Source of the DNA: Pirellulales bacterium
Lineage (GTDB): Bacteria; Planctomycetota; Planctomycetia; Pirellulales; JADZDJ01
DNA length: 64,000 nt
Reading direction: 5' to 3'
Assembly (NCBI GenBank): GCA_020851115.1
Contig: JADZDJ010000177.1
Location: 1,214-65,213, forward strand
A program made the translations under genes and the position numbers. The notes beneath the pieces were generated by a model. The model was not told where the DNA came from, made no database searches, and was given only the letters and a program-made list of their open reading frames with translations. The first letter of the stretch is position 1. The number at the start of each line of letters is the position of its first letter. Positions 11,125 through 32,306 of this stretch are shown in pieces.

Positions 11125-11595
11125 TTAGGCAGGCATCGGGCCGCCTTTCATCACGGTGCTGACGATATCGACGAGCACGCGCGTGGCGGCGGTGGTTGCT
11201 CGCTTGGCGCAGCGACCAATGGCCTGCGCGGTGCCGGCGACTTTGACGACGACTTGATCTTCCAGTTGGGTTCCGCTGGCGGCTTCATCGACGCCAATCA
11301 GGTTGCCGACTTCGAACGTGTCGGCCAGACAAGCGAATTCGAAGACGCCGCTGGTTGCCACGCGAATCGGCGCGATGTCGCCGGCGCGAGAACGCTGCAT
11401 GGCAACGCCGACAAAGAAGTCGTGAAAACCGGCTTGGTTGACCGATTCACTGCCGCCATCGGCGAGCATGCTCGCTGGCCGTGCGTCGTCGGTGTTGAGA
11501 TAGATGAGATCGCCAATTTCAATGACGGTTGCGGAATCGACCGCGAGCATGACGGGGTTGGTGTCGCCGTAACGCCAGCGTAGAACGTCGGACAT
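11125..11595 (-). CDS. Capsid cement / decoration protein
   Basis: IEIGDLIY, FVGVAM, IRVATSGVFEF, FEVGNLIG, AIGR: a DUF2190-like beta-tulip pattern; lies between protease and capsid genes. Confidence 0.75.
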   Translation of the reverse strand: MSDVLRWRYGDTNPVMLAVDSATVIEIGDLIYLNTDDARPASMLADGGSESVNQAGFHDFFVGVAMQRSRAGDIAPIRVATSGVFEFACLADTFEVGNLIGVDEAASGTQLEDQVVVKVAGTAQAIGRCAKRATTAATRVLVDIVSTVMKGGPMPA

Positions 11596-12569: not shown

Positions 12570-12635
12570 GCAACGAAAAAAGCCTGCGGTGGAACGCGTT
12601 GGTTCCACGGCAGGCTCGATGTTTTCGATGCCCTC
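12570..12635 (-). terminator. Intra-operon intrinsic terminator / attenuator (leader element copy 1)
   Basis: Minus strand: GAGGGCATCGAAAACATCG-AGCCTGC-C-GTGGAAC-CAACGC-GTTCCAC-C-GCAGGCT-TTTTTCGTTGC. Confidence 0.75.
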
Positions 12636-12638
12636 GTT

Positions 12639-12675
12639 GTCAGTGGTCAGTGGTCAGTTGTGAGTGGTCAGTAGG
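12639..12675. repeat. Heptamer tandem repeat (GTCAGTG)n
   Basis: gtcagtg gtcagtg gtcagtt gtgagtg gtcagta. Confidence 0.75.
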
Positions 12676-12755
12676 CGATCGGTGGTAGGCCGTTGTGTAC
12701 GTTTGTGGCAACCGACAACGGAAAATGGCCCACAGACCGTACTCTTCGATCGATG

Positions 12756-12941
12756 CTATTTCTCCGTTTTTTCGACGACGCGACGGATGTGTTGGAGCAC
12801 GCCGTCTTGGATGGTGATTTCGAGCGCCACTTTGCCATAGAAGCCGCTGCGAAGCGATTCGGTCAGTAGTGCCGCCAATGCGATCTTGATTTGTTTCAGT
12901 TTCACTTCATTGCCGGGAGTGGTGATGGTGGGTGTTTTCAT
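12756..12941 (-). CDS. Small DUF2292/YezD-like protein, 61 aa
   Basis: GFYGKVALEITIQDGVLQHIRRVVEKTEK matches the 'yG.v.i.vqdG.i..i...ek' pattern. Confidence 0.6.
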   Translation of the reverse strand: MKTPTITTPGNEVKLKQIKIALAALLTESLRSGFYGKVALEITIQDGVLQHIRRVVEKTEK

Positions 12942-13122
12942 GGCCGTGATGTTGATTGGAAGACGAAGAATGAGTCGGAACTTGTATTTTCGACAACATT
13001 TTTGAACCGGAGGAAGCCGGGGCGGCAAGGGAGAACTGTCTCTCGAACACCCTTGCTATTTCTGCTGCTTGCAGTTGTTTTGGTTGCGGCCATACAGCCG
13101 CGCCGTGCCGAAGTGGTTTCAT

Positions 13123-14490
13123 CTACGTTCGATGGGTCGCGAAATTGGCTTGCTCTTGGTCGTAGTCCAGCCCGGCAAGTTGGCTCCATGTCTGCGGCGA
13201 CAAGATGCCGGCGATGTGTTCGATCTTGCGCCGTTGGGCATCTTTCAGTTGATCGCGCATGCACGGCGATGGTGGAGCGGCTTGAATGTCGATCGTACGG
13301 CGCACGTCGGCCGGCAACAAACCGGCTTCGATCGCCGCGCCGACGGCCCGCCACATCACCGGCAAATCGTCGCGCACTTGTTCGGCTTGCAGTCGCTCGA
13401 ACATCCGCATGGCTGGTCCTTCGGCCACCATCGTCGATGCATAATTGGAATTCGAGGCGTCGGAGGTGAGCATGAATTCCGGCATCACCAACCGGCTGGC
13501 GATGGCCCGCAGTTCGGCTTGCAAGACGGTGACAAAGTTGGAGGCGTCGATGCCGGAGGCGGGAAAGTCGTACTCGATGCCGGCGTGGGCGTCTAGAATC
13601 GTGCCGGGGCCGTAGCGTCGAATCGGAGCCGTGGAACCGCCCGCGTTGGCCGTCGGCGGTACACAGTCGGTGCCGTTGAGCACGAATTGCTGCACGCCGG
13701 CGGCAGTTCCCTGGCGGTGCTTGCGAATCAGGGCAATCGCCGATTGAATTTCGGCCACCACGCTCATATTCCGCAGCAGTTTTTCGGCGCGACGCAAGTT
13801 CTTTCGCACCGGATAGAACAGCGGCAGTCCACGCCGAACATTGGCATCGACATTCGCCTTGCGATGCTGAATCTCGGCGGCATCGATCAAACGGCCGTCC
13901 ACAAAATAGCCGCGGACGGTTTCCACATCGTCGCGATCGGTAAGAATTCCTAGCCGGGCCATCGAGTCGGAAGCCCGATCGGAGGGAGTGATGATTTGAT
14001 CGGGTTCGATGAATCGCACTCGCAACGTGCCGTCGCGACTGGAAAAGAATCGCAAGAAGGCTTCGCCATCACGATCGCGCCTGCGGACGATTTCCTGCTG
14101 GCGGCGATGCCAACCGTTCAGTTCGATAAACTCGTCGATCGTCCGTTGCACCTCGGCGACCAATTCCGACCGCGCCCGTTGGCCCTTGCGAACCGTGGCG
14201 CGATAGGTGTGTCCGGGGCCAACAATGTAACTGACGCGGTTTTCGTGGCCGTTGATGGCAAATTCGTTTTCCAAGGCAAGCAAGCGGCATTGGCCGCGAA
14301 TTTCGGCAAGCTGTGCGTCGCTGTTGGGGCAGCCGTGCGCGATGGCGGCCGAATCGCCCGCGGCCAGCGGCAGCCACGTCTGGCTGTCGTCCCAATAAGG
14401 TTCGCGGGGATCGACAACGCTGTCCCACCACTGGCTATAGGATTCGCGAAGCTGGTCGGCCAGGCGGTCGAGGGGAGAAAGGCGGTTCAT
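13123..14490 (-). CDS. Phage portal protein
   Basis: 455 aa; R.L..ENEFAING..NRVSYIVG.G, RDGEAFLR, RFIEPDQI, EIQHRK...RRGLP, LRAIASRLVMPEFMLTSDASNSNYAST, GILSPQT; first gene of the head operon. Confidence 0.88.
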   Translation of the reverse strand: MNRLSPLDRLADQLRESYSQWWDSVVDPREPYWDDSQTWLPLAAGDSAAIAHGCPNSDAQLAEIRGQCRLLALENEFAINGHENRVSYIVGPGHTYRATVRKGQRARSELVAEVQRTIDEFIELNGWHRRQQEIVRRRDRDGEAFLRFFSSRDGTLRVRFIEPDQIITPSDRASDSMARLGILTDRDDVETVRGYFVDGRLIDAAEIQHRKANVDANVRRGLPLFYPVRKNLRRAEKLLRNMSVVAEIQSAIALIRKHRQGTAAGVQQFVLNGTDCVPPTANAGGSTAPIRRYGPGTILDAHAGIEYDFPASGIDASNFVTVLQAELRAIASRLVMPEFMLTSDASNSNYASTMVAEGPAMRMFERLQAEQVRDDLPVMWRAVGAAIEAGLLPADVRRTIDIQAAPPSPCMRDQLKDAQRRKIEHIAGILSPQTWSQLAGLDYDQEQANFATHRT

Positions 14491-14540
14491 CAGATTGATT
14501 GGTCGAGAGTGGATAGAAGCATACGATCAGTTTACGTTAG

Positions 14541-14577
14541 GTACATTGTTATATACTGAACTAATGTACTAAATCAA
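14541..14577 (-). promoter_or_regulatory. Putative promoter of the head operon with a LexA-like operator
   Basis: AT-rich patch; minus strand reads TTGATT-16-TATATA with AGTACATTAGTTCA in the spacer. Inverted repeat GTACATT (14541-14547) / AATGTAC (14563-14569). Confidence 0.55.
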
Positions 14578-14946
14578 GACCCGATTGCAAAAATTTTCAT
14601 GGTCGCCGCGCAAGTGGTGGACGGGCAAACAGTTACGGCGAGAAACTTTTTTACCTCGAAGAACGGCGGGGCGGCATCGCGCGTGTCGTCGTTGCAAAGA
14701 CTCATCCTTGCGATGCTCAAGACTGCGGCCAGGCGACACCGGCATGAAATCGCCTTCGAAATCGCCGCAAATCCGCCAGGTGTCAATGGTACGATTGAAG
14801 CACCGATTCGATCCTGCCCGTCAGAATAGCCGTAGCTCAGGTCGATTTCGTGGATCTATGGGGCAAACGCAAGCCCGGCGATGAGATCAGGCGTCGAGAC
14901 GGTGGTCCGCGACAACGGTTTTCAGCGCGGCACCTTTGTGGAAACG

Positions 14947-17900
14947 CTACTGCGACATTGGGGGCGATGGCTGCGGCGCTGGACTAGTGCGCGGCGCAGG
15001 TTGCGGCGTCAGCATCGAGCCGTCGATGTGTTGTAGTTGGCCGCTGAAATTATTGAATCTGCCGGACTTGCGCGAGCCGACCAGCGTTGTGCCGCTGACG
15101 TGCGTTCGTTCGGCGCCGATGCGTTCTTGGCGAAACGCCTGCGCGGGCGTGCGGCCGTCGCCGACGAGCCGGACTTGGTCTTTGGCCTGGTCGTACTTGA
15201 GCGAGTATCCGTCGGCGCTGAACAATTCGCCTCGTTCGCCGGTTCCTTCGATGTGCGTATTGCCGACGGCGACAACATTTGTCGACGGAGCTTCGTTGGA
15301 AATTCGCGGTGGTTGCGCGACGGTCAGTTGATCGCAGTGCAACACCATCTTGCCAGGCTGCGACGATTCGTCGGCCAATTCCGTTTGCCAATCGGGCACG
15401 GGGCCAACCATGGCGCGGACGCGGTCGTTGAAGGTGATGCTGCGCTGATTTTCGAGGACGTTTCCACCGACGCCATTTTGGAATTCGACCTGAGAGTAGT
15501 TGATTTGATTTTCGTCGGGTTTAGCGACGGCGTCGGGTTTTGTGGGATCGACAGGGCCGCGAGAAGCAGGCAGGGTCGCCGAGAGATCTTGTCGCGGGCC
15601 ATAGCGCCAGCTTTTCGCGATGCCAGGGCCGGCCGAGCGGACCTCGCCGGTGATTTGGTTCACCACCAGATCGGTCAGCCACATGCGATCGACGGTCAGG
15701 GGTTGGCCGTTGTGATACGAGAGGTGTTCGAGCAGCGCATGGCCAGGGGCTTCGACGAGTTCCACTTCGAGCTGTTGCTGGCGCTGGCGGGTGTCGCTGA
15801 AATCGACTTGGCCGCGGAGCGTGACCTTGAGCAGTTCGTTGCGGATCGATTGTTCGGCGTCGGCGGTGACTTGCTTGGCCACAACGCTGCCGCGGAGCGC
15901 GATCGTGTGGCCATCGAAATTCATTCCATCCTTCCACTGGACGGTCAGTGGGCCGCGGTTGGACATGGCGAGCGCATCGCGCGGTTGGCTCGAAGCCGAG
16001 ACGGGTTGAAACTGCCCCGCGGCCTGCTGGCGGGGCGGCAGCAGCATCTCGCCGGGGCCATCGATCCAGAGCCGCCGGCTACCGCGATCGAGCTGGACGG
16101 TGGCGCCGCGCATGGTCATGTCTTGCGCCTTGATGTTGGCCAGTTGGCCGGCGACCGTGACGTGTTCTTGCGAAGTGTTGGCGTCGCTCAAGCTGAGCCA
16201 ATCGCCGTGGATGCTCAGCGGGGGTGGATCTCCCATTTTTTCCGGTGTTTGATGGAACGACACGCTGTCGACAAGCTTTGCCCATTGAATCTCGGAACGC
16301 GAGCCATCGAGCGCAATTCCCGCCTCAATCGCGCGGCACGAAACCTGGTAGTGATCTTTGTCGCGTTCGACGGCGCGCTGGCGCGGTTCATTGGGCGATC
16401 GGCGACGATTGGGGTCGCGCGGCGGCCGGTTGGCAAGCGCGTTGGGATTGGAGCCGGTGGCGCGAAACCAGGCGCGCAGCTCGTCCATGTCACCGTCGAG
16501 CTGACGAGATTCGAAATGGACGAGCCGCTTGTCTGGATCGGCGCTCTTTTTTTCAGCATCGCCGATCGCCAGCAGCCGCGCCGGGCGCACACGGGCTCGA
16601 ATTTGGTCGGATGTCGCTGCCGAGCGAATCGCGCCGGGCGACACGACATCGGCACTTAATTCGTTGAGCCACAGGCAAATTTCGGGGGCATCGATCAGCC
16701 CAGTATCCGTGTATTCGACATGCGCATGGCCGACGATCCAAAGCAAGTGCTCGTTCTGGTCCGGTCGCAGAACGACCTTTTTTTCCCAGCGCGCGATGAT
16801 TTCGTCGTCGGATTTTTCGTCGGGTCGCGCCCGCAGCCATCCTGGGCCGTCCGAGTAGAGCTGGCCGATCAAGCGGCCTGTTGGCGCTTGCTGATAGTGC
16901 AGCGTTCGAGCTTCGGCTTCGTTTTCATCGCGGATTTTCAAGTAGACTGGCTTGGCGCCTTCTGCGGCCTTCAGCGAAATGCGACCGGTCGATCGATCGT
17001 ATTCCATTTCATCGCCGACCGCATACACTTGGTTCGACGGCGCATCGAGCACGACTGGAGCGCCGCGAGCTTTGAATTTTTGCGGCACCAGTCGCGGCAT
17101 CTTCTGGCCGTCGGGAATTGGTTCCCCCGCGGCCGGATCAGGGCTTTTGGCCGCGTTTTTTCTGGCCCTTTCGGTCGGCGTGAGTTCGCGTTCGGCAAAA
17201 AAAACGCTGACGAGGGCGGCAGTCAAGCGATCGTCGCGTCCCGGCGGGTTGGGGCGCAGCATGACCACGTTGTCGTGAAATTCGGCGATGTAAGCGACCA
17301 AGTCGAAGGTGAACGGTCCGGTGCAGCGAATATCGATGGGCAAGTTGCGATCGGCCTTTTTCTGCGCGGCTCGATCGTCGCCGGGAATGAAGCCCGCTTC
17401 GCCTGGCTGTAGGTGCATTTGCACTTCGCGATCGAGCGTGAAATCTTGAATGCCGCCGATGCCAGGCCCCAGAGGTCCGCCGGAGTTTTTCCCGGGCAAC
17501 AGGGTGATCGTCAAATCGTCGCCAGTGCCGTGGCTTTCGCCGAATCGAAAGTTGACGGGATGGGCCGAAGTAATTTTGTTTCCCGCCAATTCGAGGTCGC
17601 GGGCAACGATCCGCAGGTCGTCGCCGCCGTCGGGCCGGGTGGGAGGGCTAAAGATCGTGACTTCGCCGGGAATATTTCCTCCGGTAAGATTGCTGAGTTG
17701 CATTTTGCTAATGTCGATGTCCTCGGCAAATTTAAGCGTCGCTTGCTTGGCTTGCAGGATGACTATGCGCCGTCGAGCGTCGGGACGATCGACGTCAAAT
17801 TCGCCATCGGGCAACAAGATGAGCGTGCAGGGCTGAAAGCGGACGCAATTTTGAGGAAAATCGCGGCCATTGCCGACTTTGTAATCGCCGATGACCACCT

Positions 17901-18144
17901 TCGTCGTGTCGCTTTCCATGACCATCGGATTCTGTCGTTCCCACGAGCCTGCGGGAAAAAACCGCAAATAGGGGCCGAGACGATTTTGCTCCGTCAGCGG
18001 CGTGAGATCGGCGGAATCCGTCTTGGCGACGCGCGATTCTTCGAGCGGCGGATCGATCAACGGCACTACCACCAGACGATAGGTTCCAAACGCCGCCAGC
18101 ACGGCCAAGAAAGCGAGCGCGGTGCGTTTGAGGCGGGAGAACAT
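14947..18144 (-). CDS. Large OstA/LptA/LptC-like beta-jellyroll envelope protein
   Basis: N-terminal TM segment; repeated beta-rich motifs (FHDNVV, AVGN.HIEG, LKYDQAKDQVRLVG); downstream of kdsD-kdsC as in kdsD-kdsC-lptC/A operons. Confidence 0.6.
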   Translation of the reverse strand: MFSRLKRTALAFLAVLAAFGTYRLVVVPLIDPPLEESRVAKTDSADLTPLTEQNRLGPYLRFFPAGSWERQNPMVMESDTTKVVIGDYKVGNGRDFPQNCVRFQPCTLILLPDGEFDVDRPDARRRIVILQAKQATLKFAEDIDISKMQLSNLTGGNIPGEVTIFSPPTRPDGGDDLRIVARDLELAGNKITSAHPVNFRFGESHGTGDDLTITLLPGKNSGGPLGPGIGGIQDFTLDREVQMHLQPGEAGFIPGDDRAAQKKADRNLPIDIRCTGPFTFDLVAYIAEFHDNVVMLRPNPPGRDDRLTAALVSVFFAERELTPTERARKNAAKSPDPAAGEPIPDGQKMPRLVPQKFKARGAPVVLDAPSNQVYAVGDEMEYDRSTGRISLKAAEGAKPVYLKIRDENEAEARTLHYQQAPTGRLIGQLYSDGPGWLRARPDEKSDDEIIARWEKKVVLRPDQNEHLLWIVGHAHVEYTDTGLIDAPEICLWLNELSADVVSPGAIRSAATSDQIRARVRPARLLAIGDAEKKSADPDKRLVHFESRQLDGDMDELRAWFRATGSNPNALANRPPRDPNRRRSPNEPRQRAVERDKDHYQVSCRAIEAGIALDGSRSEIQWAKLVDSVSFHQTPEKMGDPPPLSIHGDWLSLSDANTSQEHVTVAGQLANIKAQDMTMRGATVQLDRGSRRLWIDGPGEMLLPPRQQAAGQFQPVSASSQPRDALAMSNRGPLTVQWKDGMNFDGHTIALRGSVVAKQVTADAEQSIRNELLKVTLRGQVDFSDTRQRQQQLEVELVEAPGHALLEHLSYHNGQPLTVDRMWLTDLVVNQITGEVRSAGPGIAKSWRYGPRQDLSATLPASRGPVDPTKPDAVAKPDENQINYSQVEFQNGVGGNVLENQRSITFNDRVRAMVGPVPDWQTELADESSQPGKMVLHCDQLTVAQPPRISNEAPSTNVVAVGNTHIEGTGERGELFSADGYSLKYDQAKDQVRLVGDGRTPAQAFRQERIGAERTHVSGTTLVGSRKSGRFNNFSGQLQHIDGSMLTPQPAPRTSPAPQPSPPMSQ

Positions 18145-18268
18145 GGGAAATGATTATGCGATTTGCAAAATATGAAACGTAGACGTCAAGATCGCTGGCT
18201 TGCGTCGTCCTGTGACGGGACGGTCTTTATTTTTGAGGTATCATAATTTGCATTCTTCATTTTTCATT

Positions 18269-18790
18269 TCACGCGCCGAACTTTCGCAGCACATCTTGCC
18301 AGCGGTTTTGCGCCTTGAGCAATAGTTCGATCACTTCGCGCAGCGCGCCGTGCCCGCCGTTGGCTTTGGTCACATAGTGGGCCGACTGGCGCAGATCGTC
18401 GCTGCCATCGCCGATCGTCACGGCCAGTCCGACGTGTTTGAGCACCGGCAAATCGGGCAGGTCGTCGCCAACATAGCAAACTTGTTCGGGCTTCAAGTGG
18501 CGCTCGGCGATGATTTGCTTTACCGCCGGCAACTTGTCGTCGACCCCTTGTCGCACCAGATCGACGCCTAGCTCGACCGCGCGAAGCTGCACAATATGCG
18601 AGGCGCGACCGGTGATGATGCCGAAGTGATGCCCCGCGCGCTGCCAAAGCCGAATACCTAGCCCGTCGCGAATGTGGAAACGCTTGATTTCGATTCCTTG
18701 GTTATTGAAAATCACGCCGCCGTCGGTGAGTACACCGTCGACGTCGGAGAGCAACAATTCGATCGGTTGGCAACGGGTGGAGAGGTTCAT
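18269..18790 (-). CDS. kdsC: KDO 8-phosphate phosphatase (HAD family)
   Basis: LLSDVDGVLTDG, FHIRDGLGI, IITGR, YVGDDLPD, GGHGALRE. Confidence 0.93.
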   Translation of the reverse strand: MNLSTRCQPIELLLSDVDGVLTDGGVIFNNQGIEIKRFHIRDGLGIRLWQRAGHHFGIITGRASHIVQLRAVELGVDLVRQGVDDKLPAVKQIIAERHLKPEQVCYVGDDLPDLPVLKHVGLAVTIGDGSDDLRQSAHYVTKANGGHGALREVIELLLKAQNRWQDVLRKFGA

Positions 18791-18855
18791 GATTGATCGA
18801 TGCAAAATGCAAAGTGAAAATTAAAGATGACTCAAGATTGGCTTCAGCGCCTTCG

Positions 18856-18895
18856 CATTTGCAATTTGCAGTCTGCAATTTGCAATTTGCATTTC
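18856..18895. repeat. Heptamer tandem repeat (TTTGCAA)n
   Basis: catttgcaatttgcagtctgcaatttgcaatttgcattt between kdsD and kdsC. Confidence 0.7.
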
Positions 18896-18918
18896 GTCCT
18901 CAACCTAGTTCAAGCAAC

Positions 18919-20124
18919 TCACGTGCCTTCGTCATCCCGAGAATGTAATTTTAGCAATGCGGGGTTCTTGGGTCGCGAGATGTGGGAAGAGTTTGACGGC
19001 TGCGTAGAGCCAATCGGCGAATGGGAAGCATGAGCCGCGCCCATCGCGAAGCGGCCGGAATTCTCCGCGCCGTTCCACGACTGGGCTTCCTCGCGAGCAC
19101 GGCTCTCAGGATACATCGCCACAATGTCGGTGATATCCAAGATTCCGACTGGTTTGCCAACGGTATCGACGACGGGCAATTCGCTGAAGCCGCGTTCGGC
19201 CATGATGGCGACCGCGTCGGGCATCATCGAGCCTTGCGGCACGTGGGTCGGGTTTTTCGTCATGACGCCGCGAATCGGGCCGTCGAGCCGTTCGTCGCGT
19301 CGTTGTTCGAACAGCCGCGCCAGGTCGCTGTCGGTGAAGAGACCTCGCAGGCGGCCGTCGCGATCGACGACCATGATCGCACCCGTGCGCCGCGCTGGCA
19401 GTTTTGCTTCGGCCAGCACTTCGCGCAGCGTGTGGTGGCAATCGGCCAGGCGGCATTCGGCGAGAGGTCGCATGTAGTCGTCCACGCGCGCAAGCTGGCG
19501 TCCGAGGCTGCCGCCGGGGTGGAATTTGGCAAAATCTTCGCGGCTGAAATCTCTCATTCGGCTAACGACCAGCGCGAGTGCATCGCCGACGGCGAGCATC
19601 GCGGTCGTGCTGGTGCTGGGGGCCAGCCCCAGCGAGCAGGCTTCTTGCAGCGGGCCGAGGTCGATGACCGCGGTGGCCGCCACGGCGAGCCTGCTTTTCG
19701 GCCGGCCCGTGACCGCCACGAGGGCTGAGCCGATTCGGTTGATCGACGGGAGTAATCGCACGACTTCTTCGGTTTCGCCACTTTGCGAGAGCATTAGCAC
19801 CACGTCGTCGCGATGGATGCGCCCCAGGTCGCCGTGAATGGCTTCCGCCGGATGCAAAAAGTGGCTGCGCGAGCCGGTTGAAGCCATAGTCGCTGCCAGC
19901 TTTTGACCAATTAAGCCTGCTTTGCCGATGCCGCTGACGATGACGCTGCCGGTGCAACGATAAATGAGATCGACCGCGCGGCAGAACGCCTCGTCGAGCC
20001 GAGAGGCGACGGAATCGAGCGCGCGAGCCTCCATCGAAATGATTTGCCGGGCGTAGCTGAGCTGCTCCGAAGGGGAAGCGCTTGAAGCCGGCGTGGGCGA
20101 CGAAATCGAGATTGCAGAACTCAT
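18919..20124 (-). CDS. kdsD: Arabinose-5-phosphate isomerase KpsF/GutQ (SIS + CBS domains)
   Basis: GIGKAGLIG.K.AAT.ASTG, HPAEAIHGDLG, SQSGETEE, LAPSTSTT, FHPGGSLG, CBS pair. Confidence 0.93.
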   Translation of the reverse strand: MSSAISISSPTPASSASPSEQLSYARQIISMEARALDSVASRLDEAFCRAVDLIYRCTGSVIVSGIGKAGLIGQKLAATMASTGSRSHFLHPAEAIHGDLGRIHRDDVVLMLSQSGETEEVVRLLPSINRIGSALVAVTGRPKSRLAVAATAVIDLGPLQEACSLGLAPSTSTTAMLAVGDALALVVSRMRDFSREDFAKFHPGGSLGRQLARVDDYMRPLAECRLADCHHTLREVLAEAKLPARRTGAIMVVDRDGRLRGLFTDSDLARLFEQRRDERLDGPIRGVMTKNPTHVPQGSMMPDAVAIMAERGFSELPVVDTVGKPVGILDITDIVAMYPESRAREEAQSWNGAENSGRFAMGAAHASHSPIGSTQPSNSSHISRPKNPALLKLHSRDDEGT

Positions 20125-20462
20125 ACCATCTTCCTTGATGAAACATGCGAGCGCGCAATCCATGCGCAGGTTGCAGATTCTAACCGCATCGCACGATTGC
20201 CACAACGGAAGACGGCGGTGCTAGCACGGCAATTCCTGAGCCGCCGAGTCGCTCGGTGGAGATAGGCTCGGCTTCGAAAATATGTCAGTGGCGGCAGTGC
20301 AGAGTCGATGAATCTTCAGCCCAAGGGCAGGATTTTCAAGGAGGGAATCCATACCCGGAAAAATGATCATCGACAGACGAAGTCTCCGAATCGTGATGAG
20401 CGGCCGATGTGCGATTCTCGTCAAGCATACGCCGCGAGGCGCCCGACAATGAGAATTGCGGA

Positions 20463-21659
20463 TTACGCCGAGCGAGAGATTAGCGAGATACTCGGCACGA
20501 GCGGCTTTTCGCCACAGGCTCCGGAGCGGCAGCCGGCGGGATGCGCCGTGACTACGGGCAGTGAAGGCAGCACTGGATGCCGATCGAGAATATCCTTGCT
20601 GCCCGCGGCGGAGTTGTCGTCGTGCGAGATGGAATCTTGCGGCTTCTTGGAACCAAAAATCAGCGCTCGTGCTGCGCCCCACATGCCGCGGAGTGAGCCG
20701 AACGTGGCGTTCACGGCCGAGGGTTCGTAGCCGCAGTGAACCATGCAATCTTGGCAGCGGCGATTGCCGCTCGCGCGACCGTAGGAGTTCCAATCGGTCG
20801 TGTCGAGCAGTTCCTGGAACGATTGCACATAGCCATCGTCGAGCAGGTAGCAAGGCTTCTGCCAGCCGAAGATGTTGTAGGTGGGATTGCCCCACGGAGT
20901 GCATTCGAGATCCCAATTGCCTTGTAAAAATTCCAAGAACAACGGCGAATGGTTGAATCGCCAGCCGCGATTGCGTTTGCCGAGCAACTGCCGGAACAAC
21001 CGAATCGTTTTCTGGCGATGCAAGAAATTGTCTTGATCGGGCGCTTTCGCGTAGCTGTAGCCCGGCGAGAGCATCATACCTTCGACGCCAAGCCGCATCA
21101 TCGCATCGAAGAACGCTCGCAACCGCTTTGGATTGGCGTCGTTGTACAGGGTCGTATTCGTCGTCACACGAAACTCGGCGTCAATTGCGGCTTTCGTCGC
21201 GCGGACGGCGACGTCGTAAACACCATCGCGACAGACGGCCAAATCGTGCTCGTCGCGCGGGCCGTCGAGGTGGATCGAGAACGAAAAGTATTTCGACGGC
21301 TTGAATCGCGGCAAAGCTTCTTCGAGCTTGATGGCGTTCGTACACAGATAGACGTACTTCTTCCGCGCGACGAGGCCCGCGACGATTTCGTCGATTTGCG
21401 GATGGAGCAGCGGCTCGCCGCCGGGAATCGAGACCACCGGCGCGCCGCATTCTTCGGCAGCCCGAATGCATTGCTCTGGCGTAAGCTGCTTGCGCAGAAT
21501 TTCGGGCGGATGCTGAATCTTGCCGCAGCCAGCGCAGGCCAAATTGCACCGCATCAGCGGTTCGAGCATCAGCACCAGCGGATACCGCTTCACCCCGCGC
21601 AGCCGTTTGGCCAACACATAGCTGGCGACGGTCCACATTTGTGAGAGCGGAACGGACAT
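20463..21659 (-). CDS. hpnH: Adenosyl-hopene transferase (hopanoid radical SAM enzyme)
   Basis: YPLVLMLEPL.RCNLACAGCGKI, IPGGEPLLH, CTPWGNPT, GWQKPCYLL, CMVHCGYE. Confidence 0.95.
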   Translation of the reverse strand: MSVPLSQMWTVASYVLAKRLRGVKRYPLVLMLEPLMRCNLACAGCGKIQHPPEILRKQLTPEQCIRAAEECGAPVVSIPGGEPLLHPQIDEIVAGLVARKKYVYLCTNAIKLEEALPRFKPSKYFSFSIHLDGPRDEHDLAVCRDGVYDVAVRATKAAIDAEFRVTTNTTLYNDANPKRLRAFFDAMMRLGVEGMMLSPGYSYAKAPDQDNFLHRQKTIRLFRQLLGKRNRGWRFNHSPLFLEFLQGNWDLECTPWGNPTYNIFGWQKPCYLLDDGYVQSFQELLDTTDWNSYGRASGNRRCQDCMVHCGYEPSAVNATFGSLRGMWGAARALIFGSKKPQDSISHDDNSAAGSKDILDRHPVLPSLPVVTAHPAGCRSGACGEKPLVPSISLISRSA

Positions 21660-21690
21660 GAGAGAGGATTCGGGGGTCAGGATTTAGGGT

Positions 21691-23820: not shown

Positions 23821-24279
23821 ACGGTGTCTTCCCTGACACGCGGTGGGTGAGTGCGGGCAAGTAAATGTGCGCTTCACGCTGGGCCGTAAAGGCAAAAGCG
23901 GGAAAGCTGGACTGCAGAGGAGTGCGCTTTCCAACGCCTTGGAGACGAGAAGCTTAAGTCAATGCGCGCGGCCAGACAATACCAGTGAAACGGCGCAACT
24001 TAGGAAATCGTCATCAAATGCTAGCAACGGGCGTAAGCTGGCGAAGCCGCGTAAAGTTTAACGCGCGGCCTCGCATAATTTTTGCACGCAGTCGAGTCGC
24101 GATAGGTTATCCATTACGAGAATTCAAACCCAAGCAAGCCGCATGTAGTAACTACGATCAACCCATATTCGCTGCGCAACGAAGCCAAGTGGATCGGAAG
24201 ACCAAAAAGATTTTTTCATCGACCGACGAAAATTCCAACGCTCACCCGAGCATCCGGCAGCCTCGATCGGACACGCGTA

Positions 24280-24759
24280 TTAACTCAGTGCCGTTTCGAT
24301 GTCGCACTCAATCGCTTTGGGAGAGGTCGTTGGGGCATAGCGATGAACGACCTTGCCTTGGCGATCGACGAGGAACTTGGTGAAGTTCCATTTGATGGCT
24401 TCGGTGCCGAGAATGCCGGCCTGCCGCGATTTCAGGAACACGTAGAGCGGATGCGCGCCGTCGCCGTTGACCTCGATCTTGGCAAACATCGGAAAGGTCA
24501 CGTCGTAGGTCGTCGAGCAAAACTCGCGAATCGCTGCTTCGTCCCCCGGCTCTTGATGGCCAAACTGGTCGCAGGGAAAGCCAAGCACGCAAAAACCCCG
24601 ATTTTGGTACTTGCGATAGAGTGCCTCCAGCCCCGCATACTGCGACGTAAACCCGCATTGGCTGGCGACGTTCACGATCAGCAGCACTTGGCCGCGGAAA
24701 TCGGCCAGCGATTGTTGGCGACGGTCAATCGTGGCAACGGCGATGTCGTAGAGCGGCAT
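24280..24759 (-). CDS. Glutathione peroxidase (Cys-type)
   Basis: LIVNVASQCGFT, GFPCDQFG.QEPG, IKWNFTKFLVDR. Confidence 0.95.
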   Translation of the reverse strand: MPLYDIAVATIDRRQQSLADFRGQVLLIVNVASQCGFTSQYAGLEALYRKYQNRGFCVLGFPCDQFGHQEPGDEAAIREFCSTTYDVTFPMFAKIEVNGDGAHPLYVFLKSRQAGILGTEAIKWNFTKFLVDRQGKVVHRYAPTTSPKAIECDIETALS

Positions 24760-24908
24760 GGAGCAAGTTTACCCTGATGGAAGATTCTCGACAAAGCCCT
24801 GGTCAAGTCTCGAACGCTGGTGGAAACCTGCCGCAAGAATCGTTATCTTGACACTGATTTTCGAGGTCGATTCGCCAGCCATCATTACCCCGCCATTGTG
24901 AGAGATTC

Positions 24909-26174
24909 ATGCAACTACGACGAACGTTCGCTCTAGCTCTGATTTCTGTCGTGCTGGTCGTCGCTCTGGGCATCGCGATCGCGCAAACGGTCGATCTTCG
25001 TTCCGCCGCCGCGGAGGATCTGCCGAAGACGTCGCCTGTCTCGATCAGCAGCGACCCAGCGCCGGTGAAGATCGAACGGGCATTTCCCAACCTGACGTTC
25101 GAGCGGCCGATTTTTCTGACCTATCCGCCCGACGGCACCAATCGCATTGCCGTCGTATCGCAATACGGCAAGCTGTTTCTGTTTGCCAACGATCAACGCG
25201 TCGAGCAGCCGGCGCTGTTGCTCGATATCGTCGAGCGTGTCGAATACAAGGACCGAGAGAACGAAGAGGGGCTGCTCGGTTTGGCGTTTCACCCCAGGTT
25301 CAAACAAAACGGCGAGTTGTTCGTTTATTACACTGCCAAGGGGGGCCTGAAGTCGGTCATCTCGCGATTTCGTCTGTCGAAAGACAATCCACAAATCGTC
25401 GATCCGCAGTCGGAAGAGATCCTGCTGGAAATCAAGCAGCCGTTTTGGAATCACAACGGCGGCACGATCGTCTTCGGACCCGACGGCTATCTTTACATTG
25501 GCCTGGGAGACGGCGGCGCGGCCAACGATCCGCACGGCAACGCGCAGAATATCGGCACGCTGCTTGGAAAAATCTTGCGCATCGACGTCGATCACCACGA
25601 CCTCGGCCAAAAGTACGCCAGTCCGAAGGATAACCCGTTCGTTGATGTGCCCGACGCGCGCCCGGAAATTTGGGCGCTGGGCATCCGCAACGTCTGGCGA
25701 ATCGCCTTCGATCGCGTCACCGGCAAACTATGGGCCGGCGAAGTCGGTCAGAACACTTGGGAAGAAATCGACATCATCGAGCGCGGCGGCAACTACGGCT
25801 GGAACCTCCGCGAAAGTTTCCACAAATTCACCGAGTTCAATCTGCCGCCCAAGCCAGGTCCGGTCCCCGCGAAGATCGTCGGCAAACCGATCGATCCAAT
25901 CTTCGAATATCACCATGACCTGGGCAAATCGATCACCGGCGGCAACATTTATCGCGGGAAACATGTGCCGGCACTGGTGGGCAAGTATCTATTTGCCGAC
26001 TACGTTTCCGGCGAAGTTTACGTGCTGACCTACGACGAAACGATCGGCAAAGCGACGGCCGTCCACAGGATCGACCCCAAGCAAATGCCGGTGTTCTCGT
26101 TCGGCGAAGATGAAACGGGCGAGACCTACTTTTTGACCACGCAGGGGACGATTCACTGGTTTCGACCCGAGTAG
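24909..26174 (+). CDS. PQQ-dependent sugar dehydrogenase (GSDH beta-propeller), secreted
   Basis: Signal peptide; EEGLLGLAFHP, NHNGG..FGPDGYLY.G.GDGG, GKILRIDVD, EIWA.GIRN.WR, GGNYGW. Confidence 0.9.
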   Translation: MQLRRTFALALISVVLVVALGIAIAQTVDLRSAAAEDLPKTSPVSISSDPAPVKIERAFPNLTFERPIFLTYPPDGTNRIAVVSQYGKLFLFANDQRVEQPALLLDIVERVEYKDRENEEGLLGLAFHPRFKQNGELFVYYTAKGGLKSVISRFRLSKDNPQIVDPQSEEILLEIKQPFWNHNGGTIVFGPDGYLYIGLGDGGAANDPHGNAQNIGTLLGKILRIDVDHHDLGQKYASPKDNPFVDVPDARPEIWALGIRNVWRIAFDRVTGKLWAGEVGQNTWEEIDIIERGGNYGWNLRESFHKFTEFNLPPKPGPVPAKIVGKPIDPIFEYHHDLGKSITGGNIYRGKHVPALVGKYLFADYVSGEVYVLTYDETIGKATAVHRIDPKQMPVFSFGEDETGETYFLTTQGTIHWFRPE

Positions 26175-26227
26175 TTGCCCCGCGTGAGACAAAGGCCGCG
26201 ATGGTCCGCAACGAATCCACGATTCGA

Positions 26228-29158
26228 TCAGAACGGTCGTGGAGCAATTCCGGGAGCCAATGCCGGCTCGATTGGCGACCGTTCCACCGGCCGGCCGTTG
26301 CCGTGTCGGATCAGGCGGATCGACACGTTGTCGATTGCGGCTTCGCCGATGCCGGTCAAGGCAAAGGTGACGGCGAGCGGGCCGTGCTGTGTGGCGGCTC
26401 GATAAAGGACAAATTCTCGCCACTCCTTGGTGTCGTCGATGCGTTCCGCCAGGGCATCGCCGCCCAGCGAGTCGATAATCATCAGCCCGTCGACGCTGCC
26501 GCTGATTTTCGTTGGCACCCGCGCTTGGCCGCGGATGCACACGACGTCTCCCGCTTCTAGTTGCACCGGCGCACTCGTCACCCACAGCGGCGGCGATTCG
26601 ACCAGCGCCGGTGGAGCGTCGGCCTTTTCAGGCAGCGCTTGCAGGCGCAAGCAGAAGCGACCCGACGACGGCGCTAGCGGCGAAAGCTCGACCGAGGTTG
26701 TCAGTTGCGGCTGGGGATGTTCGAAATTCCGCCAGCCGGCCGTAAGCATGACTTGTAGATCTTCGAACTCGCCACCCACGAGCAAATTTTCTCCGCCGAC
26801 AGCGCTGGCGAGCAACGCCGCGAAGTTTAGTTGATCGGGAAGCGTCGCAAAGCATGTCGCCAGCGGGCTGGCGATCGGCGAACTAAGCTCCGAAGTCGCT
26901 CGGTTCCAAACTTCTCGCCGCCAGCGCGCCGGAGCGACCGCCGCATTGCGGGCCGCGAAATATGCGTTTTCCCAATTCTTGGCGGCTCGCCATTGGTCCG
27001 ACGCTGCAAGAGCCGTGCGGGCCGCGTTGAAGGTTACGGCCGCCGGGGGCAATTGAGAGTTTGCCGCCATCCGGGATTGAACTTGTTCCGTATCGGCGAG
27101 CATCGCCATGGCCAATTCACGTTGCAGCACTACCGCCCGTGGAGTGAGAGCCTTCACGCGCTCCGTCATCGACTTCACGGCGATTGGATCGGAGGTAATC
27201 ATGGCCAGCGCCGTGAGTGGAAAATCTTCGATCAACACCGATGTGCCACCGACGATCCGTTCGCGCCGAATTTCCCGCACACCGGCGAGCGTCACTTCGT
27301 ACACGGCATGCGATTCTGGCACGCCCGCCACCGTGAACGATGCGCCAGCCGCCTGCATCGGTGCCGGCTGAGGAACATACTGCGAGCCTTTTGGGCAGCG
27401 CATCGCGACGACCATTTTGGTTCCATCGGCTCCGATCATCACGCCGCGCAAGTTCGGATCGCGCGAGGAAATGGGTGTCGGCGTACTGCCGGCGGCACCC
27501 CACGGTTCGAGTAGCTCCAGCTCCAAGTTGAGCAGCGCCAGCGAAAATCCACGAATTCGCGTCGCGTTATCGGCGGCGTCTAGTCGCGACGATGAGGCAA
27601 ATTCCACTGCCCGCACGCCGGCCGAAAAAACTTGATAGGTAAGCAGGCGCAGCGCATCGGCATCGATCGTCGGGTGGGGCGTGCCGGGTCCGCCGAGCGA
27701 CTTTACTTGCGCGACAATGGTCGGCGATGGCTCGGTTTGAATGACGGTCCACAGCGGTTTGCCGGGCCTGGCCAAACGCGGGCGCTCTTTCAACCACGAA
27801 CCGTAGTCGAACAACTCCAAATCGCTCCCCAGCGGAAAACGATGAACCGACAAGATCGGCACGTGCGACGTGTAGTTGAACAGCTCTTCCTCGGCATCGC
27901 AAACGATCGGCCGATTCATGGACCGGTCGGCCGTGGCAAGTTGCTTCGCCATTGCGGCGACTCGGGGCACATCCTGCGCAGCCAAACCCGAGCCCAAATG
28001 CCACGCCAAGACGCGATCGTACTGCGGCCCGATCTCCTGGGCGTCGCGGGCAATCGCAGCCTGCCCGTACGAGGCGTTCTGCCCGTGCGAATTGACAAGT
28101 GGATTTTGACTTGCCGCTCGAGGCGCCCTGCGCACCGGCAGCCCCGACATGCCTGGACCACCCGATGGTTCATCCGTATTTTGCCAAATGTCTTGAGGCG
28201 GGGGCGCGATCAGCCACATTCCCGTTTGGCGGGCTTCATCGAGCAACTCTGGCGTTGGCGGAGAAGGGATTCGAACCGCATTGAACCCCAATTCCTTCAA
28301 CCAAGTAAGCGGCTCGCCTTGCGATTGGATGATTCGCGGAAAAAATGGTCGCCCGTCAACGTAGAGAACCGTGCCGCGTAGCGCAATTTGCCCCACGGCG
28401 TTCGTGTCGCCGGTCGGAGACTTGGTCGTGATGTTGGCCGCTTCGGTTGGGCCGGACGATTGTGCCGATGGCATTCGTGGCACCAGCCCCGCCACTTCCA
28501 AATCGTCGATCAGCGTGGACGTCACGTCGCGACCGCCGTAGGCATTGAGCCACACCTGGTCGATGTATGCCTCGCGTACATCGACCTGCGAACCGTGCTC
28601 CGCTCGCAGCACGACTAATTTGCGATTTAGTTGCAATGGTAAATCGGTGATCCGCAGTTGCTGCCAACGGCCAGTCTGCGAATAGGTACTCTCGCGCTCC
28701 GTGCCGTGAACAATGGCCGTCAATGGTTGACCCGTGCGAGTGTCGATGGTATGCGGCAAAACAAGACGAGCGGCAAGGCGTATCCCCGGCCGGTCGGCAT
28801 TCACCCAAATACTTGGCACCAGTTCGGCAATGATTCGCGCCGGCGGAATGTCGTGAGAGAAATAGACATAGGTGCCGTCGGCGGCTTCAATCTTTATGTA
28901 TTCGGCCACCTTTCCGCCGTGCGGCGATCCGGTCACCCGTCGGTGATCGACCACGCGGTGGGCAACATCGGCTTTTGCCTCGGCCCAACTAATGTTTGGC
29001 GACTCAAATCCCTCTTGCCAGGCGGCAAGTGCATTCGTCGATCGATAAAATATGCAGATCGCGCAGACGAATAGAGTCACAGCGACCTGAACTGTGCGAC
29101 AGCCAAGAAATTGGCCGGGGCCAAATCGGTGCCGGAGAATATCGAGTTGGCGCTCCAT
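26228..29158 (-). CDS. Large hypothetical exported protein (GH/CBM-like segments)
   Basis: Long ORF (1039 aa maximum); LYVDGRPFFP, LKELGFNAVRI, VLAWHLG, KPLWTVIQ; C-terminal NLLVGGEFE CBM-like segment. Start uncertain. Confidence 0.6.
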   Translation of the reverse strand: MERQLDILRHRFGPGQFLGCRTVQVAVTLFVCAICIFYRSTNALAAWQEGFESPNISWAEAKADVAHRVVDHRRVTGSPHGGKVAEYIKIEAADGTYVYFSHDIPPARIIAELVPSIWVNADRPGIRLAARLVLPHTIDTRTGQPLTAIVHGTERESTYSQTGRWQQLRITDLPLQLNRKLVVLRAEHGSQVDVREAYIDQVWLNAYGGRDVTSTLIDDLEVAGLVPRMPSAQSSGPTEAANITTKSPTGDTNAVGQIALRGTVLYVDGRPFFPRIIQSQGEPLTWLKELGFNAVRIPSPPTPELLDEARQTGMWLIAPPPQDIWQNTDEPSGGPGMSGLPVRRAPRAASQNPLVNSHGQNASYGQAAIARDAQEIGPQYDRVLAWHLGSGLAAQDVPRVAAMAKQLATADRSMNRPIVCDAEEELFNYTSHVPILSVHRFPLGSDLELFDYGSWLKERPRLARPGKPLWTVIQTEPSPTIVAQVKSLGGPGTPHPTIDADALRLLTYQVFSAGVRAVEFASSSRLDAADNATRIRGFSLALLNLELELLEPWGAAGSTPTPISSRDPNLRGVMIGADGTKMVVAMRCPKGSQYVPQPAPMQAAGASFTVAGVPESHAVYEVTLAGVREIRRERIVGGTSVLIEDFPLTALAMITSDPIAVKSMTERVKALTPRAVVLQRELAMAMLADTEQVQSRMAANSQLPPAAVTFNAARTALAASDQWRAAKNWENAYFAARNAAVAPARWRREVWNRATSELSSPIASPLATCFATLPDQLNFAALLASAVGGENLLVGGEFEDLQVMLTAGWRNFEHPQPQLTTSVELSPLAPSSGRFCLRLQALPEKADAPPALVESPPLWVTSAPVQLEAGDVVCIRGQARVPTKISGSVDGLMIIDSLGGDALAERIDDTKEWREFVLYRAATQHGPLAVTFALTGIGEAAIDNVSIRLIRHGNGRPVERSPIEPALAPGIAPRPF

Positions 29159-29485
29159 CGCGCAACTTCCAATGGGAAGTTTTCCTGAGGCTGTGTAGAC
29201 GAACTTTTCGCGTAAGGCCATGAAGCAATTCTGCATCGTACAGTCGCATCGGCCGGAATTGATGCAACTTGGCCTTGTATCAAGATTTACAACTCGACGC
29301 CAGATCGGCCGTTGCATCGTGGCAGCATTGAACCAAATTTGCGTCAAAGCATGGAAAATTGCGTAACTTTTGATTATTTATAAACTTAGAGCAATCGATT
29401 GCAGTCCGCGGAACGATCGGCACAGCCCCTGCTCTAAGAACCACTGCTTATCTGCAATTCCTCACTTCTAAGGCTTGAACCATCG

Positions 29486-29767
29486 ATGAATCCCACCAGC
29501 CGCTTCGACCAACTTCCGGCCGATGAACTTCCGGCCGATGTCATCGCCCTTTGCAAAGGCATCGACTTACTACCATCGCAGCATCGCGGCCAGCTTGGCC
29601 CGGCCATTGAACGAGTGATTGAAAGCACCAAACGTCGCCGTCGCATTCTAAACCTGGTGCAAGACGCGCTCAGCCAATTGCGACTGGACATGAAATACCT
29701 GATGTTCGACTTAGAGGCCACCCGCCGAGAACGCGATGAATTTCGCAAGCAATTGGACGGAATTTGA
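29486..29767 (+). CDS. Small conserved planctomycete coiled-coil protein
   Basis: RRRRILNLVQDALSQLRLDMKYLMFDLEATRRERD. Confidence 0.75.
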   Translation: MNPTSRFDQLPADELPADVIALCKGIDLLPSQHRGQLGPAIERVIESTKRRRRILNLVQDALSQLRLDMKYLMFDLEATRRERDEFRKQLDGI

Positions 29768-30022
29768 GCGTGAGCGGGGGGCATTTCAGCGACGCAAAAC
29801 AGCATCGAGAGCCGCCGCGGAATCGCGATTCGGCCCAATGGCCGTCGAATTCACCGCTCATTGCAGCCATCCTTCCAGCGGGATACGATATTTAAAGCAG
29901 TCCGCCGGGTCCATCGGACCGCAGTTTGCCGTCGACCAACCTTTCCAGGCTAACCCGTTGCGAAAACACGTCAGGCGTATTCGCTCGACCTACTGAATTG
30001 GGGAAAACCAGCCTTGCCAGCC

Positions 30023-31453
30023 ATGTCGGAATGGACCTCGGAACAAATCGCTCAAGCCGCGCTCGACCGCGACCTTGTCACCCAGCGCCAACTCAGCGAC
30101 GTCTGGAATGAATTGGGAACAGGTCACGACGTCGATCCCGAGCAATTCAAGCAGTGTCTGCTGCGCCGCGAACTGCTCACCAATTACCAACTCGAAAAGC
30201 TGCTCAAAGGGGACCGCGGGGGATACTACTACGGCGATTATAAAGTGCTGTATCTCGTCGGCCGCGGCACGTTTGCTCGGGTCTATCGCGCCACCCATCG
30301 CCACACGGGCCAGATGCGGGCGATTAAGGTGTTGCGTAGCCAGTTCTTCAAGGAAAAAAAGGATCGCGACAATTTCATGCGTGAAGGCGAAATGGGCAAG
30401 GCCCTCCGCCATCCAAACATCGTCAGTCTGCTGGAAGCGGTCGAGTTGCCGCACTGCTGTTATCTGGTGATGGAATTCATCGAAGGCCAGAACCTGCGCG
30501 AATTTCTCAAGCGCCGCGGGCACTTCGATCCGATCGAGGCCACGCGGATCGCGATCGATATTTGTCGCGGTCTCGATTACGCCTTTCAGCGCGGCGTGAC
30601 TCACCGCGACTTGAAGTCCTCCAACGTGCTCGTCTCCAGCCTCGGCCAAGCGAAACTGGTGGATTTCGGCCTGGCGGGCTTCGACGAAGACGAAAAATCG
30701 GAAAACGCGCGAACCATCGACTATGCCGCGCTCGAACGCGCCACTGGTGTGCGCAAAGACGACACCCGCAGCGACATTTTCTTCCTCGGCTGCATTTATT
30801 ACCAAATGCTCTGCGGCCGAACCGCGCTCGAGGAAACTCGCGACCGATCGGTCCGCTTGAGCCGCACGCGACTGGAATCGATCGTTCCCATTACGGAGCT
30901 GAAGCCCTATTTGCCTGCCGAGATTGTCGCGGTCGTCAATAAGGCGATCAAGCTCGATCCGGAATCGCGCCATCAAACTCCTTCCGAAATGCTGGGAGAA
31001 TTGCTGGCCATCGCTTCCCATGCGCCGGCGCCAGGCCGCAACGGCGAGGACCAGAAAGCATCGGCAGCGCCCGCCAAGCAGCGGACGCTGCTAATTATCG
31101 AGCAAAATCCGCAATTGCTCGAAAACCTTCGCAGTCAATTTAAGCACAAGGGCTATCGTGTGCTGGCAAGCGCCGATCCCCAACGTCCGGCCGGACTGTT
31201 TACGGACACGAACCGTCCGGCCGATTGCGTGCTGTTCAGTGCATCCAGCCTCGGCGAAGAGTCGCTGGAAGCCTTTAACGCGTTCGCGGAACTGCCGCAA
31301 ACCAAGTCGGTGCCAGCCGTGTTGTTGCTCGGTCCAAAGCAGCAAGGCTGGACCAGTCGCGCGAAAACCGACGACATTCGCGCCATCGCCACAGCGCCGA
31401 TCAAGATGAAAGAACTTCTCGCGCTGTTTGATAAGCTCTCCGGCAGTACGTAG
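30023..31453 (+). CDS. Ser/Thr protein kinase with a C-terminal receiver-like domain
   Basis: GRGTFARVY, AIKVL, HPNIV, HRDLKSSN, DFGLA, SDIFFLG; C-terminal TLLIIEQN..GYRVL..VPAVLL. Confidence 0.9.
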   Translation: MSEWTSEQIAQAALDRDLVTQRQLSDVWNELGTGHDVDPEQFKQCLLRRELLTNYQLEKLLKGDRGGYYYGDYKVLYLVGRGTFARVYRATHRHTGQMRAIKVLRSQFFKEKKDRDNFMREGEMGKALRHPNIVSLLEAVELPHCCYLVMEFIEGQNLREFLKRRGHFDPIEATRIAIDICRGLDYAFQRGVTHRDLKSSNVLVSSLGQAKLVDFGLAGFDEDEKSENARTIDYAALERATGVRKDDTRSDIFFLGCIYYQMLCGRTALEETRDRSVRLSRTRLESIVPITELKPYLPAEIVAVVNKAIKLDPESRHQTPSEMLGELLAIASHAPAPGRNGEDQKASAAPAKQRTLLIIEQNPQLLENLRSQFKHKGYRVLASADPQRPAGLFTDTNRPADCVLFSASSLGEESLEAFNAFAELPQTKSVPAVLLLGPKQQGWTSRAKTDDIRAIATAPIKMKELLALFDKLSGST

Positions 31454-31612
31454 TCGAGCTTCACGCGCAATTGCTTGGCCGATCGGTTCGGCGAGGTTTC
31501 GTCTGGCGACAAAACACGCTCGCGTCGATGCCATCGTCTCGGCGCAACCTCTGTTGGTACAGATGTTTACATCACTAACTGAAAATATTCTCTCCTGATC
31601 TGAATTTTCTGG

Positions 31613-31640
31613 TTGACTTGCGTCTCGATCTTTGTATGAT
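31613..31640 (+). promoter_or_regulatory. Putative sigma70 promoter of island 2
   Basis: TTGACT (31613-31618), 16-bp spacer, TATGAT (31635-31640) in an AT-rich patch; GTAC-AGAT-GTTT at 31557-31568. Confidence 0.6.
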
Positions 31641-31688
31641 CGCTAGTACAGTAAACAACTGAATGGTATTTGTGAGAGCCGCTGAGTC

Positions 31689-31748
31689 GAGCGGTATCAG
31701 ATCGAAGCCCGTCACCGGACGCATCCGGCGACGGGCTTTTTTCGTTGC
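31689..31748 (+). terminator. 5'-leader intrinsic terminator / attenuator (leader element copy 2)
   Basis: GAGCGGTATCAGATCG-AAGCCCGTC-A-CCGGA-CGCA-TCCGG-C-GACGGGCTT-TTTTCGTTGC, located between the promoter and the first ORF. Confidence 0.78.
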
Positions 31749-31804: not shown

Positions 31805-32209
31805 ATGTCCGTCCAAATCTCACCCCTCGTTCATGTTCCGTCGTTGCGCGAACTGCTCGAACTGGTTGCCATGTTGCGCGACTTTCGCCAGCCGCTCGGT
31901 TCGTCCGAAGGACTGCGTAGCGCGATCGACATGCTGCTCAAGCTCGGCCAGGCGCTCGGCGTCGATCCGACCTTACTCGCCAGGCTGCGTTCGCTGTCTG
32001 AAGATCCGCATCTCTTCGAACTTGCGCTCGCCGTGCTGCGCTATGCGTTGAGCTTCAGGAATCCAACGTCGCAATCGACCATTTCGCTCGAGTCGTCAAG
32101 CGATACGAATCAGGCGGAATTTTCCTCGCAATCACTTGGCTTCGCGGAATGGTTCACATTGCTCATGCAACTCTTCGAACTGTTGCGACGTTTGCGAAAG
32201 GACGCGTAG
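31805..32209 (+). CDS. Hypothetical helical protein with an amphipathic/hydrophobic C-terminal helix and basic tail
   Basis: RBS AGGA; ends GFAEWFTLLMQLFELLRRLRKDA. Confidence 0.65.
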   Translation: MSVQISPLVHVPSLRELLELVAMLRDFRQPLGSSEGLRSAIDMLLKLGQALGVDPTLLARLRSLSEDPHLFELALAVLRYALSFRNPTSQSTISLESSSDTNQAEFSSQSLGFAEWFTLLMQLFELLRRLRKDA

Positions 32210-32306
32210 TTCGCACTCTCCTCGCCGATCTACCCCGCGGCAATGGATCTGTTTGACTGTCGATCGCCGTTTCCTGGCTCCTGAACCCTGAACCCTCATC
32301 TCTCCC

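Follow-up and report, generated by a model that had tools for sequence, protein, structure and literature searches.

In the ANTAR systems (EutV, AmiR, NasR), the target RNA forms tandem hairpins, the second of which overlaps the terminator stem, and several operons can stand under one factor; the ANTAR domain recognises hexaloops with A1 and G4, while the stems are sequence-independent and the linker is constrained (PMC8934654). The ribonucleic antiterminator (RAT) of BglG, SacY and LicT is a stem-loop that lies partly over an intrinsic terminator and is stabilised by the protein, according to PMC12591593. Among gene transfer agents (GTAs), the antiterminators BrrG (BaGTA) and GafZ/GafA coordinate separate loci of domesticated phages through termination and antitermination, as stated in 10.1101/2024.11.20.624540. 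This study concerns a hairpin-terminator element that occurs twice in a 64,000-nucleotide (nt) stretch of a Pirellulales genome (GCA_020851115.1, contig JADZDJ010000177.1, positions 1,214 to 65,213; hereafter the window), beside two islands of phage-like genes. Comparative sequence analysis suggests, with a probability of roughly 0.66, that a small box hairpin lying over the predicted terminator is an antitermination switch, and that it is run by the adjacent 61-residue DUF2292-like protein, which is predicted to bind the hairpin and permit read-through.

Both copies were found at the positions and on the strands given in the original prediction, which was made from the DNA letters alone. A DUF1549/DUF1553 protein and the taxa of atlas clusters point to a planctomycete as host. 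Copy 1 lies on the minus strand between the 61-residue gene and a putative protease gene, and copy 2 lies on the plus strand ahead of the second island. The parts of the two copies are as follows.

12756-12941, minus strand: 61-residue gene, remotely DUF2292-like, candidate RNA-binding antiterminator, directly upstream of copy 1
12613-12632, minus strand: hairpin of the copy 1 box, GGCAUC-9 nt-GAGCC, in the long form (two additional pairs); predicted antiterminator
12576-12616, minus strand: copy 1 terminator-like stem (12581-12616) and U-tract (12576-12581); the overlap with the box is AGCC
31613-31640, plus strand: sigma-70-like promoter ahead of copy 2 (10/12 match, 16-nt spacer)
31665-31680, plus strand: copy 2 distal box, overlooked in the original prediction
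31681-31692, plus strand: copy 2 spacer hairpin, between its two boxes
31693-31709, plus strand: copy 2 proximal box, a variant with an extra A, predicted antiterminator
31707-31742, plus strand: copy 2 terminator-like stem and U-tract

In copy 1 the box is single and of the long form; copy 2 is tandem, as the element usually is, in the order of promoter, distal box, spacer hairpin, proximal box and terminator. Short CTGACCA-type tandem repeats stand right before copy 1 (12640-12671, minus strand), and relatives often have other short tandem repeats at this place. The folds of both copies gave z-scores of -4.3 to -6.5, and none of 200 shuffles was equally stable. A simple terminator scanner called neither copy; it demands a short loop and an unbroken stem, and both stems are interrupted. 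A script counted 214 terminator-like hairpins in the 5.2-Mb genome, 62 of which begin with GCC; the box is present on copies 1 and 2 only. Likewise, the 5' box pattern first described for the copies occurs just twice in the whole genome, and so does the exact 15-mer that they share, which has one further match with a single mismatch and no box. The element is therefore not a generic terminator, the outcome that had been named as refuting its significance: the box accompanies 2 of 214 terminator-like hairpins and is largely restricted to the order within the phylum. Folding the full length of either copy also gives an extended stem, in which the 5' box pairs with bases beyond the U-tract. This stem was rejected, since those bases lack conservation and are transcribed only once read-through has occurred.

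The DNA upstream of homologues of the protease gene indicates that the conserved unit is the box GGYAUC-loop-GAGCC, predicted to form its own hairpin and to lend its 3' arm as the base of the terminator stem. Folded on its own, the box would have three pairs, then a bulged A, then two more pairs, and the terminator stem starts with the bases that end the box. Homology to the small protein was the sole basis for choosing a set of 48 spacers, 28 viral and 20 genomic, with this genome among the latter; some are near-identical. Scripts called a terminator in 47 of these, and boxes at the proximal site in 37 and at the distal site in 34; in 7 of the 10 spacers without a scripted proximal box, one is visible by eye. 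In 37/48, the register at which the proximal box and the base of the terminator overlap is fixed, the box loops vary from 4 to 10 nt, and the linker between the boxes is a hairpin of 4-39 nt. The original prediction had treated the identical 15-mer as the key shared part. This was ruled out: the 15-mer is exact in only 1 of 51 homologous elements, namely copy 1 itself, and is an ordinary terminator tail. The arrangement ATCGAAGCC...GGCTTTTTTCGTTG was found in 20 genome stretches, 18 of them from non-planctomycete bacteria, as plain terminators. The 5' box of the same prediction proved real and specific, but its role as the conserved unit had been misjudged. As regards the suggestion of an undescribed cis-regulatory RNA, the Rfam comparison gave no match in the window at the gathering score or at a relaxed E-value, and only tRNAs in 20 loci with related matches. 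A literature search, which did not extend to supplementary motif catalogues, found no description of the box RNA, of DUF2292/YezD as an antiterminator, or of the head-gene cluster described below.

The 61-residue protein is predicted to form a helix and a beta-hairpin (predicted local distance difference test score 84), and its family has 508 representatives at E up to 0.001. Its nearest named atlas cluster is DUF2292 (score 0.77), and one phage relative was matched at E 0.055. The gathering cut-off of PF10055 (DUF2292) was not reached, as 0 of 21 small-protein members match at E up to 1, and the PF10055 search of this genome returned a different locus only. Fold searches with the 61-residue model brought no clear match: the best Z was 4.9 among 48,161 chains, and the best E for a viral match was 0.025. 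These searches exclude no family. Of 10 loci with the canonical DUF2292 gene in this and related genomes, 7 have a different hairpin, though similarly built, after the gene, and none has the box there. This gene lies at G000:C232:3461-3568 (L360) here and in the other loci of L358-L367; its hairpin is of the GCYGAC...GAGGC type and often tandem. In L023, L024, L027, L028 and others, a promoter-like site ends 8-9 nt before the start codon of the 61-residue gene, suggesting a leaderless mRNA in several relatives.

The small gene was found in 51 of 101 genomes of the order, nearly always as a single copy, and in 1 of 160 other sampled genomes of the phylum. Elements were searched by sequence patterns, which miss variants. 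Both gene and pattern were present in 35 genomes of the order, the gene alone in 16, the pattern alone in 12 and neither in 38, counts in which kin are not independent. The 16 gene-positive genomes without a pattern match include G004, G007, G014, the G032-type variants and G034, and elements or near-variants are visible in their sequences. Pattern matches occur in 23 of the 160 other genomes of the phylum, by eye mostly without a closing terminator. Raw match counts in viral contigs were uninformative (122 real versus 104 control); distinct matches with terminator closure discriminate. A strong terminator accompanied 52 of 91 distinct box matches, and 21 had such a small gene upstream; in the reversed-box control the corresponding values were 2/30 and 0. 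Phage contigs unlike those of planctomycetes carry small genes with the same hairpin motif, G-x-V-x-I-x-x-x-G, at 12-69 nt before the box (380 nt in one case). Other box matches in phage contigs, several unlike the planctomycete element, are followed by portal, head or head-protease genes. Lambdoid-like matches after Q genes or tRNAs (L114, L124, L136, L140, L157) and one 14-member match group were set aside; the small gene was not detected with them, they may be due to chance, and neither was counted as support.

Several observations weigh against a switch run by the small protein. Its family matches canonical DUF2292 weakly (hhalign 59%, E 9e-5 over 27 columns). Unlike in several relatives, the box of copy 1 is single, and the small gene there has no promoter-like site right in front of it. 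Four genomes of 91-99% completeness (G202, G206, G232, G263) contain intact elements with no small-gene or capsid match, and DUF2292 had no match in G202 and G206. No small gene was detected upstream of 32/52 viral and 29/39 metagenome elements with strong terminators, some of these flanks being short. The core of the box is nearly invariant, and pairing support there consists of one-sided changes only: among the core substitutions in the 48 spacers, G-U/G-C exchange preserves the pair in 19, the pair is lost in 9, and none is two-sided. The elements without a detected small gene, both in genomes and in many viral contigs, would also be expected if the same attenuator were bound by another factor, from the host or from elsewhere in the cluster, and the small gene were a travelling member of the regulon; a helix-turn-helix (HTH) regulator that also flanks the cluster may be one such factor. 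We consider this rather unlikely. Phage contigs that are otherwise unrelated have small genes of this motif right next to the box, the second DUF2292 protein of the same genomes precedes a different hairpin, and element and gene are both nearly absent from the phylum outside the order.

If the 61-residue protein is the antiterminator, it would bind the box hairpin, and RNA polymerase would then read into the phage-derived genes. The bound factor would keep the proximal box folded; the folded box would remove the bottom 3-4 pairs of the terminator and part its stem from the U-tract. The distal box may recruit or anchor the factor, like the dual hairpins of ANTAR. The small gene precedes the terminator, so its product can be made before the others, and a two-step early/late cascade over the cluster halves and scattered cassettes may result. 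The original prediction of an attenuator or antitermination site defining a regulon agrees with this anatomy and with the two sites in one cluster; no partner protein had been proposed. The small protein might instead bind the hairpins and affect RNA stability, processing or feedback repression. The data are of co-location and do not themselves give the direction of the effect, and canonical DUF2292 hairpins do not always have a clear U-tract after them. We nevertheless judge such a role unlikely, as the fixed overlap of proximal box and terminator in 37/48 spacers is the geometry of antitermination in PMC8934654 and PMC12591593.

The box hairpin of copy 1 (-6.8 kcal/mol) is present on folded transcript prefixes until the 3' arm of the terminator emerges. 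That the box folds first is what a protein-independent, leaky terminator would predict, one whose leakage adjusts gene stoichiometry and for which the box is a competing fold. The terminator fold, however, is favoured over the enforced box fold, by 5.4 kcal/mol in one window copy and 11.4 kcal/mol in the other; the exact core, the bulged A and the second, non-overlapping box are conserved as well, and a mere competitor has no need of them. This makes the leaky terminator very unlikely. The energy difference implies that the default state would be off, and therefore that read-through would need a stabilising factor.

Compensatory changes are present in the upper and spacer stems. Among distinct metagenome matches, both pairs of the upper extension are Watson-Crick in 32/39 with a strong terminator versus 21/67 without one (119/120 loci; the pattern alone would give about a quarter), and the pair types AA/TT, GG/CC, GA/TC and AG/CT all occur. 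Of 76 tandem elements, 39 have a spacer between the boxes that is closed by 3 or more pairs, where shuffles expect 4.1; the box columns are constrained by the pattern and were excluded as evidence. A double-stranded DNA binding site that chances to precede ordinary terminators would suit the almost invariant core, but it is the least plausible explanation, given that the half-site spacing varies from 4 to 10 nt, the substitutions obey G-U rules and the upper stems compensate.

The two islands had been assigned to one system, and the relatives bear this out. In 6 of 6 relatives with the long region (G002, G010, G020, G026, G031, G037), the two parts are co-linear on one strand with the terminase genes between them. 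The order is element, accessory genes, ParB-like gene, ABC/GNAT gene, small and large terminase, portal, 61-residue gene, element, protease, decoration, capsid and neck genes. The element stands at both the cluster head and the pre-protease site in 5/6; none was found by pattern at the cluster head of G002. A conserved TTGAAAT..GGCCA promoter motif is seen ahead of many cluster-head elements. Accessory genes vary among the clusters of relatives, and island 2 of the window is the upstream half of the same cluster. The remaining features of the two halves are listed below.

14550-14577, minus strand: promoter-like site ahead of the portal gene, read by eye; the scanner did not call it
13123-14490, minus strand: portal protein, lambda family
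11681-12487, minus strand: first gene after copy 1, putative head protease or scaffold (label from the original prediction and gene position; PHROG of unknown function)
11125-11595, minus strand: head decoration protein
9889-11046, minus strand: major capsid protein (PF25209)
9473-9685, minus strand: conserved 70-residue head-cluster gene
8989-9417, minus strand: head-tail attachment-like protein (weak Pfam match, below cut-off)
8291-8866, plus strand: HTH regulator, flanking the cluster in several relatives
31805-37436, plus strand: island 2, with a 134-residue open reading frame (ORF), S8 peptidase, 541-residue, 203-residue, 60-residue ParB-like piece and ABC/GNAT protein

The ParB-like piece (35795-35977, plus strand) covers only the C-terminal 60 residues of a protein of about 190 residues in relatives. 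In this genome, the cluster halves lie 19 kb apart and are divergent. The large terminase is represented here only by an identical 39-codon 3' end at the ends of two contigs (G000:C151:7818-7934 and C211:23724-23840), with different genes after it, and this genome yielded no small terminase; the large and small terminase genes are therefore probably unassembled. The two ends point to a terminase locus that was duplicated or rearranged and left unassembled; C173 carries a second, distant terminase. In G016 and G018, a detached small-terminase gene carries its own element, and in G225 and G246 the cluster is present only in parts, on short contigs. Homologues of the protease gene occur in 31 of 41 related genomes. 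The flanking genes are common across families, and the ratio of nonsynonymous to synonymous substitution (dN/dS) is about 0.1-0.4 with high dS; both fit a long-kept chromosomal element. A conserved chromosomal cluster of phage head and packaging genes, one of the hallmarks of a GTA, is present.

The wider regulon was viewed in 20 further regions and one G037 element region. Elements in G244, G254, G232 and G037 head cassettes whose proteins have a common N-terminal region and variable C-termini. One cassette protein has a contact-dependent inhibition (CDI) EC869-like nuclease domain and is followed by CdiI and SUKH immunity genes; in G244:C17, G254 and G232, another ORF lies between element and cassette gene. 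These form a polymorphic toxin-immunity cassette family (L398, L399, L400, L401, L403, L406, L095) with a tandem element before each and no Pfam match in the N-terminal region. A profile search of this genome with the toxin N-terminal region found no cassette. That the cassette proteins are cargo of the phage heads is speculation. G202 and G240 (L390-L396) contain multiple extra intact elements without a clear downstream gene, some amid repeated palindromic DNA, and these may be remnants or repeats that are spreading.

A palindrome, TGTWC-N4-GWACA (9-10 of 10 positions), covers the island-2 promoter (31637-31650, plus strand) and recurs at the HTH gene (about 8292-8305). The palindrome also stands twice before lexA (G000:C200:25250 and 25278), about 550 nt before one recA copy (G000:C275:1155), and ahead of the small gene in several relatives (L023, L024, L027, L028, L050). 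It resembles a LexA box of Verrucomicrobia. The palindrome has 195 genome-wide matches and overlaps -10 hexamers; it is a lead only.

A protein-RNA switch made of a tandem hairpin and a tiny protein would likely be undescribed. If confirmed, it would assign a role to the tiny, uncharacterised proteins of a widespread family, and a very small RNA-binding antiterminator would join the CAT, ANTAR and HutP classes. With two protein-hairpin pairs in one genome, specificity can be tested directly by swapping partners. The hairpin is also a tag by which to search for a conserved planctomycete system of phage origin for which no description was found in the literature, and it ties this system to toxin-immunity cassettes in some genomes. 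A much broader picture is conceivable, though doubtful: about half of the order may keep a domesticated phage head as a delivery particle, with the 61-residue protein, possibly under SOS control, switching a scattered regulon through a tandem-hairpin code that marks toxin-immunity cargo, and DUF2292-like proteins may form a superfamily of minimal antiterminators with orthogonal pairs in one genome.

Compared with DUF2292/YezD/OscA (PF10055), the 61-residue protein has the common G-[FY]-G...QDG helix-hairpin motif, and both have a conserved, often tandem hairpin after the gene; the 61-residue protein, however, falls below the Pfam cut-off and its hairpin differs in sequence. No RNA-binding function for DUF2292/YezD/OscA was found in the literature. 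Like RAT, the hairpin here overlaps a terminator, whereas RAT is about 30 nt long and its proteins, which have CAT and PRD domains, regulate sugar operons; neither domain was found among the window proteins or the small-protein members. The likeness to ANTAR lies in the dual hairpins, the second over the terminator, found in 34/48 spacers; in the window, copy 2 is tandem and copy 1 single. The element differs from ANTAR targets in its variable loops of 4-10 nt, which do not follow the hexaloop A1/G4 rule, and in its sequence-conserved stem core with a bulged A and its hairpin linker of 4-39 nt. The protein also differs, being a helix and beta-hairpin of 61 residues without an ANTAR Pfam match; none was found in this candidate or in the 44 window proteins scanned, the rest of the genome not having been searched. 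Like the GTA antiterminators, the system proposed here would coordinate separate loci of a domesticated phage via termination and antitermination. BrrG and GafZ/GafA, however, are described as Q-like, loaded at promoter DNA and processive (10.1101/2024.11.20.624540). Because every terminator here carries its own RNA site, the arrangement points to local, non-processive action.

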